Shown one piece after another: positions 58,516-64,000 of a stretch of DNA of 64,000 nt; position 1 is the first letter of the stretch, and each line of letters opens with the position of its first letter. The stretch lies in the NCBI GenBank assembly GCA_964347045.1, contig CAYFXC010000009.1:32001-96000 (forward strand), given 5' to 3'. The stretch comes from an uncultured archaeon. GTDB taxonomy: Archaea > Asgardarchaeota > Hermodarchaeia > Hermodarchaeales > Hermodarchaeaceae. The position numbers were made by a program, and so were the translations under genes. The notes below the pieces were generated by a model. It had not been told where the DNA came from and ran no database searches. It saw only the letters and a program-made list of their open reading frames with translations.

Positions 58516-59040
58516 TTATCGTTCAAGCTTTTCAATGATTTGTTCTGTGAGCATACGAAATGCGTCTTCCACCTTCTCACCGCTTAAAGCGCTGGTCTCA
58601 AGATAGGAACACCCATATCGGTCAATCCATTTCTTAGTCTCCGCTTTATTGATTTCACGTTTTTTCTTCAAATCTGCTTTATTTCCTACTAACAGAATCT
58701 CGACGTCTCCAGTATGTTCACGGATTTCTCGCATCCATGTCTCTATTGCCTCAAGAGTTTCGGGTCGAGTAAGGTCAAACACTAGCATCGCTCCGTCTGT
58801 CTGTTGGTAGAAGCTTGAACGATAAGGTGCGAAACGTTCTTGGCTGGCAATATCCCAGATGATGAGTCGAGCAACCTTTTCTTCTAGTTCAATGATTTTA
58901 TACGCGAAGTCTACGCCAATCGATGCTTTATATTCGCGTTCAAACCGGTTTTCCACGTACTTGAGAATAATGCTTGTTTTTCCCACAGCGGGATCGCCAA
59001 CTAAAAGGATCTTAAACTCATAATAGGGCTGTTTTGCCAT
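58516..59040 (-). CDS. Rab-like small GTPase
   Basis: FKILLVGDPAVGKTS, RabF1 IGVDF, WDIASQERF, LVFDLT, GNKADL, ETSAL; no C-terminal Cys. Confidence 0.92.
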   Translation of the reverse strand: MAKQPYYEFKILLVGDPAVGKTSIILKYVENRFEREYKASIGVDFAYKIIELEEKVARLIIWDIASQERFAPYRSSFYQQTDGAMLVFDLTRPETLEAIETWMREIREHTGDVEILLVGNKADLKKKREINKAETKKWIDRYGCSYLETSALSGEKVEDAFRMLTEQIIEKLER

Positions 59041-59163
59041 TTTCCACACCCGTGCTTAATGTACCTTGTACTCTTTCTTATTAAACTAGTAGTAAGGAAC
59101 AACCTTTCAGGAACTGCTTAAAGGATTGCGCTAAAGACGTTTTACTTCCACTATTTTTTTCGG

Positions 59164-60159: not shown

Positions 60160-63100
60160 ACACCCGTGTCTTTAGCTAACTCCCGTAATCGTTTGAGCAT
60201 ATTTTCCAAGCGATTAGCAGGTTCACCAGAAGTAACGCGAAGTTTTTCGATTCGATCCATACGACGGTCGGTGAGCGTCCACTCAATTTCGCGAATTAGT
60301 GCTTGTGTGGTGTTTAATGTATTATCAATGTCTTGGATGATTTGCTCGTCTAATGATGGTGTTCGCATACGCCGTTTGCGGCGATATTGGTTGGCAAAGT
60401 AGGTTCCAATTATCAGTATTGTCAAAATCGTGACCAGAAAGATTTGGATAGCCATGATTGCGAGGTAATCTGGTTCCAAAGGTGGAGGCGGCTCATAAGG
60501 TGGAGGAAGGTAATAAAAGTGCATGAAAATGGAGGTGCTAGCATAGGAACCTGGCATGGTGAAAGCGATGATGGAGAAGGTTTGGGGAGTATTAACCAAG
60601 TCATCTAGCCCCGTCCAATTTGCGAAAAGAAAAGATCCATATCGCCCCTCTTTCACTTCAAAGGCAATGAAGAATGTTTGAGTTCGATTGGGGAAAACAT
60701 AAATTATGTACATGGTGAGCCCTTCGACACCTCCCCCCGTGGCGTTATAAGCATCGATGACAAATCCTGCATCATTTCCAATGTAGAAAGATGAATTAAT
60801 TCCGCCAGTGGTCCGAATCATTAGGGTAACGGTTTGTCTGAAAAGATACTGAATTGTTTGATTTACCAGTCGTAGGTTATCTAATTTTAGTAAGTAAGAA
60901 TTTCCAAAAATTGCTGAACATCCTAAAACATAGAGTTCTTTATGGTCATTCACGTAAACTCCAAATTCAGTTCCATTTATCCAGGCGAAAGTTTGGCCCG
61001 ATCCTGTAACATTTAACAAGGTTCCTTCAACCGTGGAAATGCTATTCACACCTGAGGTAAATGGAGTTGATGGATTCAATTCCGTGGTATTTAATCCGGT
61101 TACTTTTCCACCTACTTGAATACCTTGATTCCACAGCAGCTGATTCAATGCAGTATGATTGGATGAATCCGGCTGGTCTGCCAGAACTATTACTTTGAAT
61201 CCCGATTCGATAAACTCTGATATCGCTAATGTTTCTTTTTGAGTAAATCCTTTCTCGGGATCACATAGAATGAGACCATCAAATAACTGGAGTACTGTTG
61301 AGTTGATTTCTGAAATTAATGGAATGTCAGTGAGATTTAATTGAGCGTCTGCAAATAATTCGCGTAGCCCCGAATATCCGGTTAAAAGGCTGTCTCCAAT
61401 TTCATCGAAGAGGGAAAACAGTTTGTCGAAATCTAAATTGGAAAAGTCCAAATCTTCGAGATTTGAGAAGTCTAGCCCTTGGTTATGAATGGAATCAAAG
61501 AGAATGACTGCCTTGGGATATATTACATTAATAATAAATGGCATTGTGAACTGCCAGCCATCAGAGGCGCTCAGAACAAGGGTTCCAAAATAAGGCCCTG
61601 CTTCAATAAAGGTAGGGATGAAAATAGTAATTTGAAATTGTGCTCCTACTTCAATGCCAAAGATATGATCTGGTGTTATGTTCGGTGGTATATCCCATTG
61701 CGTGATGTTACGATCGATAGGGAAATCGAAGGAGCTATTATAGAAAGAATCAATAGCAATAGAAAGTGAACTGATGGGTGTTGTTGTGTGGATTGTGAAA
61801 TTATAGATAGCGTAATCATTGGGGAATCGCAAAGTCATTGGACTGAATGGTAGAGCGGTGGGATTCAGCATACGTATTTGGGGAGGCGTGCTAATGAATA
61901 TGTCTCGATAGACTAGGTTGTCAAGTGGATAGAGGTCTTGTGGAATGGTTGGAAGGATGAGGTCAAAATCAATAGTGGGTGCAACAATCCATCCTGCAAA
62001 ATAGATGTCTGTGACCTCCGGATTCCATTCAACTATTAATTTCTGGAACTGAAACGGTTCGAAAATACCAAGTTGGAAATATCGTGCAAAGACTGTACCA
62101 CCTAGGGGTTGTGACCGGTTTGTGAAAAAAGCCGCAATCGAATCGACCCCGCTATCTCCTATGTTTAGTACAATTACTGATGTCTGATAGGTTGAATTCG
62201 TAGTTTCTGTCCTTGCTAAGTCAATCTGAATCATGCAGAGGTCAGTGAGAGGAGCATCTATTGTGGCTCTTTCTGTTTGATTTATACCATGAACGAGAGC
62301 AGTGAAATTATGACCAAACCCCAAGGTCAACGATATGTTTCTTAGGGATTCTCCTATAGAAAGGTTTCCGAGACGCCATTGGGAGCCAAAACCTAGGCCT
62401 TCATCGCTTGAGTAACTTACTGTATTGTCAAGGGTCTCATTTTGAACACTATCACTGATTTCGTCGATTGAGCCCACTTGAAAATCAGTGAACGGTGTTG
62501 ATGCATTGATTCCAATATATTGTTCAACACGAGTGGTTTCGTTTATGGGGAGAACATCTGAATGGATATGGAAGAGCTGGGAAGTGGTATTAAAGAATCC
62601 TTGTTGAGTAGAAGTATCGTTTGCGCCACTGAATAAGTCAAAGTTCCACTGGCTATAAAGTCGAATATCGGTGATATTTTCGGATCCAATATTCACAAAG
62701 AAAAAGGAAAGACGAAACGCATTTGCAGAATAACCAGAAGTTATTTGCCACGACTCTATACGGGGAATGATAAGCAAGTCATTATAGGACAAAATCCCAG
62801 TGGCACGGATGTACTCACCGTAAGGTAAACTGGTCCAATGGAATTCTTGTTCAATATCGAGAAAAGCAAAGGGAATTGGGCTACTTGTTCCTACAGCTAG
62901 GTGAAACGTTCCAAGGAGCATATGAAATAGCGTCATGTTGGTTTTACGGCTTTTTACCAGGGCTCCTAAGGCTGTTGAATAGCCACTCATTAAAAGTGTA
63001 ACATTTTCCAATGTAGATTCGCTAATTAACATTCCATAATAGGGGAAACCGATTCCAATGCTTCGTGGACGATAGTCTGAAGGAAATGGATCATGAAGGA

Positions 63101-64000
63101 CTGATAATTCGTCATAGGCGCGTGATGCGTTTAGAAGCCCGGCGCCTTCAACATTGGGTTCACCGATAATAGGAGTTGCCCCGCGGCGTATGCCGATTAG
63201 GAGGGCTTCTGGTGTGGCAAATCGACTGCCTTCAAGGAGAAGACAAGCGGCTCCGGCGGTGATTGCTGCTGAAGCAGCGGTCGTGCTTGCCAGGGTATAA
63301 TTTTCGTTGATCGGTGCGCCAAAAGTTCCTCCACGAATGAAGTCGATATCTTCCACAGAGATGTCAATTGAGACGTTTCCGAGATCAGTTGGAAAGATAT
63401 TATGTAAGGATGAAGAGATGATGTCGACTCCGGGAGCAATGATATCGGGTTTGGTGCGAAAATCGAAGGTTGGACCTCGGCTACTGAAATCAGGAACTTG
63501 TCCCGTTATGGTATCATATGCCCCAACTGTAAGTGCAGCAAGAGATTCACCTGGAGACATGATGGTCATGTGATTGGGTCCTCGATCCCCTGCTGCAGAG
63601 ATAACAAGAATTCCACGTTCAACAGTGCTCATTATAGCTTCTGAGAGAGGGTCTCCTGGCAATCCAAAAGTTGAGAACGGTAATAAGATGATATCTGCGC
63701 CATTGGTTACACTCCATTCGATACCTCTGATAATCCACGATGAATAACCTGTTCCGTCACCAAGGAGCACTTTTGCACTCATTAGTTGTGCTCCAGGAGC
63801 GATGCCAGTGTAATTTCCATTGGAAGCAGCTCCTGTTCCCGCTACAAGTCCTGCACAATAAGTGCCGTGGCCATTAATATCAAAAGGAAAAGGATCTCCT
63901 TCAACAAAAGACACTTGAGCTAATACCTTGGGATCGTTAGTGGTTTCGTTGTCATCCATATCGTCAAGATCTGGATGTGTAACGTCAATGCCCGTATCCA
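60156..64000 (-). CDS. Membrane-anchored S8 subtilase homologue, apparently inactive, with Site-1-protease/GIFT-like domain (N-terminus beyond window)
   Basis: Frame open to the window edge (DTGIDVTHPDL); GHGTYCAG; FSSRGP, KPDIIAPG; nucleophile motif is STTAAS; ILFDSIHN...ALNQLL domain; poly-Pro plus TM plus cytoplasmic helical tail. Confidence 0.85.
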   Translation of the reverse strand, partial: DTGIDVTHPDLDDMDDNETTNDPKVLAQVSFVEGDPFPFDINGHGTYCAGLVAGTGAASNGNYTGIAPGAQLMSAKVLLGDGTGYSSWIIRGIEWSVTNGADIILLPFSTFGLPGDPLSEAIMSTVERGILVISAAGDRGPNHMTIMSPGESLAALTVGAYDTITGQVPDFSSRGPTFDFRTKPDIIAPGVDIISSSLHNIFPTDLGNVSIDISVEDIDFIRGGTFGAPINENYTLASTTAASAAITAGAACLLLEGSRFATPEALLIGIRRGATPIIGEPNVEGAGLLNASRAYDELSVLHDPFPSDYRPRSIGIGFPYYGMLISESTLENVTLLMSGYSTALGALVKSRKTNMTLFHMLLGTFHLAVGTSSPIPFAFLDIEQEFHWTSLPYGEYIRATGILSYNDLLIIPRIESWQITSGYSANAFRLSFFFVNIGSENITDIRLYSQWNFDLFSGANDTSTQQGFFNTTSQLFHIHSDVLPINETTRVEQYIGINASTPFTDFQVGSIDEISDSVQNETLDNTVSYSSDEGLGFGSQWRLGNLSIGESLRNISLTLGFGHNFTALVHGINQTERATIDAPLTDLCMIQIDLARTETTNSTYQTSVIVLNIGDSGVDSIAAFFTNRSQPLGGTVFARYFQLGIFEPFQFQKLIVEWNPEVTDIYFAGWIVAPTIDFDLILPTIPQDLYPLDNLVYRDIFISTPPQIRMLNPTALPFSPMTLRFPNDYAIYNFTIHTTTPISSLSIAIDSFYNSSFDFPIDRNITQWDIPPNITPDHIFGIEVGAQFQITIFIPTFIEAGPYFGTLVLSASDGWQFTMPFIINVIYPKAVILFDSIHNQGLDFSNLEDLDFSNLDFDKLFSLFDEIGDSLLTGYSGLRELFADAQLNLTDIPLISEINSTVLQLFDGLILCDPEKGFTQKETLAISEFIESGFKVIVLADQPDSSNHTALNQLLWNQGIQVGGKVTGLNTTELNPSTPFTSGVNSISTVEGTLLNVTGSGQTFAWINGTEFGVYVNDHKELYVLGCSAIFGNSYLLKLDNLRLVNQTIQYLFRQTVTLMIRTTGGINSSFYIGNDAGFVIDAYNATGGGVEGLTMYIIYVFPNRTQTFFIAFEVKEGRYGSFLFANWTGLDDLVNTPQTFSIIAFTMPGSYASTSIFMHFYYLPPPYEPPPPLEPDYLAIMAIQIFLVTILTILIIGTYFANQYRRKRRMRTPSLDEQIIQDIDNTLNTTQALIREIEWTLTDRRMDRIEKLRVTSGEPANRLENMLKRLRELAKDTGV

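Follow-up and report, generated by a model that had tools for sequence, protein, structure and literature searches.

A conserved, degenerate subtilase with a GIFT domain as a candidate extracytoplasmic subunit of an ABC-2-type transporter in Asgard archaea

The stretch of DNA described here (the window, 64,000 nucleotides, C9:32001-96000 of an Asgard genome bin of 2.58 Mb that is 89% complete) contains most of the gene of a large membrane protein, the pseudo-subtilase, in which a subtilase (S8) domain with a degenerate catalytic site is joined to a GIFT domain and which is encoded side by side with genes of an ATP-binding cassette (ABC) transporter. We propose, by analogy with the GldA/GldF/GldG system and at a probability of about 0.6, that the pseudo-subtilase serves a dedicated, GldAFG-like transporter of the ABC-2 type as its large accessory subunit outside the cytoplasm. 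The database label "S8 family serine peptidase" is misleading for such proteins, as the catalytic site is degenerate throughout the clade.

The gene lies on the minus strand at 60156..64000 and was delineated by its open reading frame (ORF) and translation, by Pfam matches and by comparison with 30 orthologues. When read from the whole contig, the ORF encodes 1462 amino acids (aa): the first 181 codons are past the window end at 64000, with the start at window-equivalent position 64544 (544 nt past the end) and the stop codon at 60156-60158. A hydropathy scan reveals a hydrophobic segment at the N-terminus (aa 10-37), and the region between this anchor and the S8 domain aligns with the prodomain of Tk-SP, a protease of Thermococcus kodakarensis. 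The degenerate S8 domain itself (aa 174-480, 63105..64000, minus strand, first 8 residues outside the window) was delimited by the alignment with Tk-SP (PDB 3afg) and by motif columns of the orthologues; it matches Pfam PF00082 Peptidase_S8 with an E-value of 1.2e-42 over aa 174-447, and Tk-SP is its nearest solved S8 structure (profile E 1.3e-65, prodomain included). It is followed, on the same strand, by an all-beta middle region made of several beta-sandwich domains (aa 481-1004, 61533..63104), the GIFT domain (aa 1005-1240, 60825..61532, defined by Pfam, PDB profile and structural matches), an Ig/MG-like beta-sandwich domain (aa 1241-1350, 60495..60824, from model m301ad52073e3), a Pro-rich stalk (PPPYEPPPP) with the C-terminal transmembrane helix (aa 1351-1386, 60387..60494, the hydropathy scan placing the helix at aa 1358-1386), and a cytoplasmic helical tail of 76 aa (aa 1387-1462, 60159..60386, recognized by its conserved columns). 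The transmembrane helix and the tail of about 75 aa had already been noticed in the first-pass annotation of this DNA, and both are supported by our analysis. Many columns of the tail are invariant among 28 orthologues, and the pattern is still visible at 26-32% overall identity.

The middle region of about 520 aa matched no Pfam family. Its AF2 model (ma782654b3f31, pLDDT 81) is a chain of beta-sandwiches, of which the first ~270 residues are similar to the N-terminal super-sandwich domain of GH94 phosphorylases. A Foldseek search with this region retrieved only generic beta-sandwich arrays (the GH94 N-terminal domain at a TM-score of ~0.3, the MG domains of alpha-2-macroglobulin and integrin legs) and no function-specific match. 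The pseudo-subtilase contains 38 N-x-S/T sequons, judging from which it is probably glycosylated in the way archaeal surface proteins are.

Two residues of the S8 catalytic site are kept and two are replaced. The catalytic Asp is present as Asp183 in DTG (codon 63998-63996, barely inside the window) and the catalytic His as His226 in HGT (codon 63869-63867), while the nucleophile Ser is replaced by Ala423 in STTAASAAITAG (codon 63278-63276) and the oxyanion Asn by Asp320 in AAGD (codon 63587-63585). In the hidden Markov model alignment to Tk-SP (3afg) the family string "sttaasaaiaaG" falls on "PGTAMATPHVAG": Ala423 is aligned to the nucleophile of Tk-SP in GT[S]MATPHVAG, Thr422 corresponds to the customary Thr of G-T-S, and no other Ser is placed at the nucleophile position. 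The cleft is remodelled, with LPFS in place of the customary SLGG strand. Of the residues expected of an active peptidase, the pseudo-subtilase thus lacks the catalytic Ser of G-T-S-M-A and the oxyanion Asn, and it retains, as do nearly all of its close orthologues, the catalytic Asp and His. All of these motifs and their places had been read from the letters in the first-pass annotation (DTG and HGT kept, Ser->Ala at about 63276-63278, AAGD at about 63584) and were verified by translation. The same annotation suggested that the protein binds but does not cut polypeptides. The degenerate site is borne out; however, the prodomain probably stays attached, because the protease cannot cut, and it may occupy the cleft of the S8 head, and the binding of polypeptides is therefore an inference.

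The database search with the non-S8 part of the protein yielded 30 orthologues of 49-81% identity, all of them from Asgard bins with the source labels Promethearchaeota, Hermodarchaeota, Hodarchaeota or Thorarchaeota. Among the 28 that are full-length, Ala at the nucleophile position, Asp at the oxyanion position and His226 are each found in 28/28, and Asp183 in 27/28. Since every one of 28 orthologues that differ this much shows both Ser->Ala and Asn->Asp, the alignment tells us that the changes are neither chance nor a sequencing error, nor are they peculiar to this copy, and the S8 head is supported as a conserved pseudo-protease. A scan of 201 Asgard genomes identified full-length relatives (~1400-1780 aa) in seven families. 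In members from other families, whose overall identity is 26-32%, the Ser is missing as well and the oxyanion motif is AAGD; three of these members also have His->Arg. AAGD is invariant in the seven distant pseudo-type members compared. No region of the protein is better conserved than the S8 domain, with 48% identity between distant families vs 17-28% for the other regions; the domain is thus under selection despite its degenerate site, and this pattern of conservation is the signature of a pseudo-enzyme retained for binding or scaffolding.

A broader view was obtained by comparing the non-S8 profile with the cluster representatives (50% identity) of 1.84 billion proteins, of which 196 match (44 at E < 1e-30). 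Seventy-four of these have an S8 domain, which is degenerate in 47, has the nucleophile Ser in 6 and is fully active in ~20. The degenerate domains have A/G/T/F/R at the nucleophile position, are varied at His and mostly have Asp at the oxyanion position; replacements of His by R, S, E, D, Q, T or I occur across many lineages of the clade. The six Ser-bearing representatives keep the oxyanion Asp and have partly lost the His, and the ~20 active ones have a complete D-H-N-S set and a GIFT domain as well. In a quick maximum-likelihood tree, for which SH-aLRT is the only support measure, a branch with 99% support splits the 47 degenerate from 22 active S8-GIFT proteins, and the Ser-bearing proteins are scattered within the degenerate group. 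This topology is consistent with a single, early loss of activity in which Asn->Asp was the change common to all. The tree's closest representative to the pseudo-subtilase, P0039 (partial, 985 aa, source label Thorarchaeota), is one of those with a nucleophile Ser (ASTTSASAAI); its Asp and His are present, the oxyanion site is still Asp, and the Ser looks like a single-base reversion within the dead clade.

The active S8-GIFT class was also encountered in the Asgard families f2 and f20 (for example, L033:8016-11831 on the plus strand and L035:8528-12352 on the minus strand; proteins P0096, P0120 and P0166). These proteins have intact GTSMA and AAGN, a GIFT domain, a transmembrane helix and a cytoplasmic zinc-ribbon tail; they have no ABC neighbours, show weak matches to Pfam MBTPS1_4th (24-27 bits) and are closer in layout to site-1 protease (S1P) than the dead clade is.

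The C-terminal module of the pseudo-subtilase points to ABC transporters. It is matched by IFT52_GIFT (Pfam PF23355) with 29.1 bits against a cut-off of 27.2, all 28 full-length members being matched in the range of 29.1-31.7 bits, and the same 28/28 members match ABC_transp_aux (PF09822), with a best E-value of 1e-8; a match of DUF4350 to the GIFT region is under the Pfam cut-off. The profile search of the PDB with this module gives IFT52 at E 4e-6, and two Salmonella GATase-like proteins were also retrieved by such searches, made with the GIFT module or with an active S8-GIFT relative. An ESM Atlas fold search with the module returned clusters of DUF4350 and ABC_transp_aux and archaeal fusions of S49 peptidase with GIFT at TM-scores of 0.42-0.54; these predicted folds are consistent with a GIFT/ABC-auxiliary reading and add no function to it. 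At least 4 further proteins of this genome, encoded in open frames of 298-680 aa, match GIFT/ABC_transp_aux weakly (G000, C1:33463-33651, C7:114387-114686, C14:14079-14447 and C2:128777-129124).

The pseudo-subtilase gene is flanked by genes of an ABC transporter on both sides. Downstream of it, ATPase B (331 aa, 59164..60159, minus strand; Pfam ABC_tran E 5.5e-27) begins with a start codon that overlaps the pseudo-subtilase stop in ATGA at 60156-60159, as was read in the first-pass annotation and is verified in the sequence. Among NCBIfam models this ATPase matches drrA and GldA-like subfamily models under their cut-offs, with GldA as the third-best model. The first-pass annotation had asked whether ABC-2 permeases lie beyond position 64000, and a permease is indeed encoded upstream, just past the window end, beside a second ATPase gene. 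The permease is 376 aa long and has six transmembrane segments and an outer loop of ~130 aa; the second ATPase, ATPase A, is 565 aa long (L002:8552-10249, minus strand, which corresponds to window-equivalent 64551-66248 and is thus beyond the window). The Walker A, signature, Walker B and H-loop motifs are all intact in both ATPases. The first 250 aa of ATPase A constitute a conserved extra N-terminal domain, for which an atlas look-up gave no usable match. A marginal match of this domain to Pfam Regulator_TrmB, the effector-binding domain of a sugar-sensing regulator TrmB, was seen at 24 bits, no single stretch passing alone. Its role in the cytosol may be that of a sensor or of a docking site.

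In the genome studied and in the loci from its own family, permease, ATPase A, pseudo-subtilase and ATPase B are arranged in a row, and downstream of ATPase B there follow a Rab-like GTPase and then an aminotransferase. The gene order is rearranged in more distant Asgard families. The four genes form a single row in f26 and f6; in f18 the three ABC genes are divergent and adjoin the pseudo-subtilase gene; in f9 and f23 there are two permeases and ATPase B is shifted to the opposite end of the cluster; and in f7 no ABC gene is present within ~8 kb of the pseudo-subtilase. ATPase B is part of the pseudo-subtilase gene cluster in five distant Asgard families, and the linkage with an ABC ATPase proposed on the basis of the window alone is therefore kept across large distances. 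The profile of the ATPase A N-terminal domain detects it in 16/18 genomes of f1, 42/43 of f6, 5/5 of f7, 6/6 of f18, 1/1 of f26 and 3/3 of f23, and in 3/41 of f9, all from one genus; it was not found in the 19 other families sampled save for short stand-alone pieces in f20. The families with this domain are the same seven that have the full-length pseudo-subtilase. Wherever the ATPase A domain and the pseudo-subtilase are on the same contig, they are 3.7-6.0 kb apart (58/58 genomes, related genomes in this count being non-independent samples), and in the five genomes of f7 the two are on different contigs and are both retained. Since co-occurrence holds at the level of families and adjacency has survived rearrangement, gene distribution argues for a functional unit formed by the pseudo-subtilase and the ABC genes. 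The stand-alone proteins of f20, a family without the dead clade, are 158-166 aa long, and their homology with the ATPase A N-terminal domain (E ~1e-15; G053:C53:10882-11175, G044:C184:3319-3615 and G061:C18:6087-6380) covers its first half.

Several observations weigh against the proposal that the pseudo-subtilase is a transporter subunit. The whole row is retained in the own-family loci (54-67% identity) together with unrelated neighbours, synteny there extending over aminotransferase, PGK and cupin genes, so that close-range synteny proves little. In f7 the genes are unlinked. The score of ABC_transp_aux (24.9-27.9 bits) is under the curated cut-off of 34.7, and the NCBIfam models of GldG and GldF gave no match. 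A single permease gene accompanied by two different ATPases is unusual among ABC-2 systems. Finally, six family representatives, P0039 included, have a nucleophile Ser, and residual activity in some lineages is possible.

Some of these observations would be accommodated if the pseudo-subtilase were a stand-alone surface protein (an adhesin, a receptor or an envelope component) that is merely encoded beside an ABC-2 exporter or is its client. The f7 member would then need no ABC gene nearby, and the sequons, the Pro-rich stalk and the C-terminal anchor are features that the pseudo-subtilase shares with archaeal surface proteins and with an active subtilase encoded in its neighbourhood. We nevertheless consider this unlikely. 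The adjacency in all 58 same-contig genomes spans six families despite the rearranged order, the distribution of the pseudo-subtilase among families equals that of the special domain of ATPase A, the conserved cytoplasmic tail implies a partner in the cytosol, and the GIFT domain is a hallmark of ABC auxiliary proteins.

The order of domains raises another possibility, namely, that the pseudo-subtilase is the Asgard counterpart of S1P (MBTPS1) or OST48/Wbp1 and has a role in protein maturation or in N-glycosylation, for example, by docking lipid-linked glycans delivered by the transporter. As in S1P, a prodomain, an S8 domain, a beta region, a GIFT domain, a transmembrane helix and a tail follow one another, and the region at about 61520-60840 was taken in the first-pass annotation for an S1P-like, GIFT-related domain. 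The comparison with MBTPS1 and IFT52 suggested there was made with an AF2 model of aa 1005-1350 (m301ad52073e3, pLDDT 69) searched against the PDB with Foldseek and VIA-align. Foldseek places OST48/Wbp1 on top (6s7t_G and 6ezn_G, E ~1e-8, ~330 columns) and IFT52 next. In VIA-align, IFT52 has a Z of 16.9 over 171 residues at an rmsd of 3.1 A; OST48/Wbp1 reaches a Z of 13-15 over 270-277 residues that cover GIFT and the next beta-sandwich, at an rmsd of 8-9 A with a model of pLDDT 69; S1P (8uw8_A and 9csd_A), aligned through its residues 618-872, scores about as high as GH42 and other GATase-like domains do (Z 11.1-11.4 vs 10-11.5); and the MG domains of alpha-2-macroglobulin, which match the Ig/MG-like beta-sandwich, have a Z of 9-10. 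The GIFT assignment thus holds and so does the match to IFT52, whereas the S1P specificity does not: S1P scores lower than IFT52 and OST48 and no better than generic GATase-like domains. The likeness to the S1P GIFT domain holds at the level of the superfamily, but S1P is not the closest relative.

A counterpart of S1P or OST48/Wbp1 is for these and other reasons improbable. The super-sandwich and GIFT folds are carbohydrate-associated, which would suit a role in glycosylation, and MBTPS1_4th is detected weakly in 15/28 members (best E 3.5e-4). However, this model gives the isolated module 13.5 bits vs a cut-off of 27, the S1P-specific post-catalytic models of Pfam (MBTPS1_4th and related) have no match at E <= 0.1 in the whole protein, and OST48_N has none at E <= 1 in the genome studied and matches 1/28 members at E 0.021. 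At the sequence level the PDB profile searches with the C-terminal module and with an active S8-GIFT relative found neither S1P nor OST48, and the best match of the S8 domain is the archaeal Tk-SP and not S1P. The distribution differs as well: divergent WBP1 homologues were reported to be restricted to Heimdallarchaeia, with no mention of a fusion to S8 (Eme et al. 2023). One of the four further proteins with weak GIFT matches in our genome might be of the divergent type described in that work.

Control of the system by the adjacent Rab-like small GTPase, which was suggested in the first-pass annotation, seems to us quite unlikely. The GTPase (174 aa, starting with the ATG at 59040; 58516..59040, minus strand; Pfam Ras E 1.5e-50) has Rab8A as its best PDB match (6.6e-39), with Rab11A also among the best. 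It does come next on the same strand after ATPase B, both here and in the own-family loci (54-67% identity). Its G3 motif reads WDIASQE (Gly->Ser), a Ser is at the Thr position of G2 and the C-terminal prenylation Cys is missing, so the protein departs from canonical Rabs, which have DxxGQ and the prenylation Cys; these deviations, the unusual DIASQE among them, are invariant in four orthologues, which suggests altered GTP sensing. Nevertheless, in five operons of other Asgard families the 4-8 kb scanned past the gene cluster contained no GTPase, a gap of 114 nt with a TATA-like TTTAATAA box separates ATPase B from the GTPase ATG, and regional synteny within the family makes the adjacency uninformative. 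The GTPase is, on this distribution, a family-specific neighbour rather than a core component, and small-GTPase control is not supported for the system as a whole.

It is hardly credible that the S8 domain continues to cut by means of a non-canonical nucleophile: Asp183 and His226 are kept in most close orthologues, Thr422 directly precedes Ala423 and a few family members have a nucleophile Ser, but the nucleophile position is occupied by A/G/T/F/R with no conserved alternative Ser or Cys close by, the His is replaced in many lineages, the oxyanion Asn is changed to Asp almost everywhere, and in subtilisin BPN' substitutions of Asn155 cost two to three orders of magnitude in kcat.

Two other genes of the window deserve mention. 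A second giant subtilase of 1668 aa (51412-56418, plus strand) has intact motifs (DTG, HGT and SGTSMSAP), a signal-like N-terminus, a PPPPPPPYE stalk and a C-terminal transmembrane anchor; an S8 gene of 1562-1582 aa occupies its position in the own-family loci, and none was seen near the distant operons. The ORF at 56545-57126 (plus strand, 193 aa) encodes a polytopic membrane protein of no Pfam family, and a gene for 174-185 aa is found at the same position in the own-family loci.

If the pseudo-subtilase is a subunit of an ABC-2-type transporter, the products of four genes would physically assemble into one machine: the ABC-2 permease, of which certain lineages have two, the pseudo-subtilase-GIFT protein and both ATPases, A and B. 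As the accessory protein, the pseudo-subtilase would be anchored by its C-terminal transmembrane helix, its N-terminal segment being hydrophobic as well, and would expose outside the cell the prodomain-bearing dead S8 head, the beta-sandwich domains and the GIFT module, while the conserved helical tail would extend into the cytoplasm and link the outer scaffold to the cytosolic ATPases. We submitted ATPase A, ATPase B and the tail (aa 1386-1462) to co-folding with alignments, and the score of 0.08 vs a mark of 0.32 bears on binding in neither direction. If GldA/GldF/GldG and NosDFY are taken as models, ATPases A and B may form a heterodimer whose hydrolysis of ATP would power export or conformational work. 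Two ways of using this energy can be envisioned. The first one is the export of a cargo, perhaps a glycan or a lipid-linked compound, to the outer scaffold. Alternatively, ATP hydrolysis may drive conformational or mechanical work on the outer scaffold itself. A glycan or lipid-linked substrate is a reasonable guess, no more, that follows from the carbohydrate-associated folds of GIFT and of the GH94-like super-sandwich.

The dead-subtilase family together with its transporter is kept in at least 7 Asgard families and found nowhere else, with 196 matches among the representatives of 1.84 billion proteins. It would thus be an Asgard-specific membrane machine that is lineage-defining in the closest archaeal relatives of eukaryotes, and a natural case of an ABC-2 transporter with a pseudo-enzyme as its accessory subunit. 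The small superfamily of its outer module also includes eukaryotic IFT52, OST48/Wbp1 and S1P, and the S1P-like order of domains makes the origin of these three proteins testable by phylogeny and structure. Asgard archaea possess both active S8-GIFT-transmembrane proteins and the ABC-coupled dead clade, and there is an outside chance that the layouts of S1P (S8-GIFT-transmembrane helix) and OST48/Wbp1 (GIFT-beta-sandwich-transmembrane helix) descend from Asgard membrane proteins like the pseudo-subtilase. If so, the GIFT proteins of the eukaryotic secretory pathway would go back to an archaeal ABC-2 surface machine, either as its subunits or as its relatives, and this machine possibly handled lipid-linked glycans.

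In our search, literature on pseudoproteases, archaea and ABC transporters and on Asgard archaea with OST48/Wbp1 contained no description of this system, and it is best compared with several known ones that each resemble a part of it. S1P (MBTPS1/SKI-1; PDB 8UW8 and 9CSD) has a signal or anchor, a prodomain, S8, a beta domain, GIFT, a transmembrane helix and a cytoplasmic tail in the same order, and its residues 617-998 were named the GIFT subdomain in the structure paper (PMC11231238). The two GIFT domains superpose over 171 residues at the Z of 11.1-11.4 given above. However, S1P has a working triad (D218, H249 and S414) and the oxyanion N338, where the pseudo-subtilase has lost both the nucleophile and the oxyanion residue; it has no ABC partner, and outside the generic S8 fold there is no sequence match between the two proteins. 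OST48/Wbp1 (6S7T chain G and 6EZN chain G) shares GIFT, a beta-sandwich and a C-terminal transmembrane helix by structure only and has neither an S8 head nor a long tail, the rmsd of 8-9 A reflecting domain orientation and the pLDDT 69 model. IFT52 (PDB 5FMS and 5FMR) is the closest single-domain relative of the GIFT module by both sequence and structure, yet it is a cytosolic ciliary transport protein in a wholly different context.

On the side of the S8 head, Tk-SP (3AFG), in which GTSMATPHVAG and AAGN are intact, is secreted and active as a protease and lacks GIFT, a transmembrane helix and an ABC partner. CspC and CspA, the germinant-receptor pseudoproteases of Clostridioides difficile, likewise employ S8 folds with degenerate triads as modules for binding and signalling, and the NCBIfam model CspC_non_triad matches the pseudo-subtilase partially (47 bits, far under the cut-off); they are, however, soluble spore proteins of Firmicutes that lack a GIFT domain, a membrane anchor and an ABC system and that are not closely related to the pseudo-subtilase.

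The known systems closest to the proposed transporter are those ABC-2 systems that work with an outer partner, such as NosDFY, and above all GldA/GldF/GldG of gliding Bacteroidota and the auxiliaries of PF09822, in which an ABC-2 permease and an ATPase are likewise encoded together with a membrane-anchored extracytoplasmic GIFT protein. Going by model matches, which are absent or under cut-off, the pseudo-subtilase falls outside the GldG equivalog family. Compared to GldG, it adds a prodomain, a dead S8 domain and ~520 aa of beta-sandwiches before GIFT and a conserved tail after the transmembrane helix, and its family is found only in Asgard archaea. Compared to GldAFG as a whole, the Asgard system has two distinct ATPases, one of them with an N-terminal domain of 250 aa.

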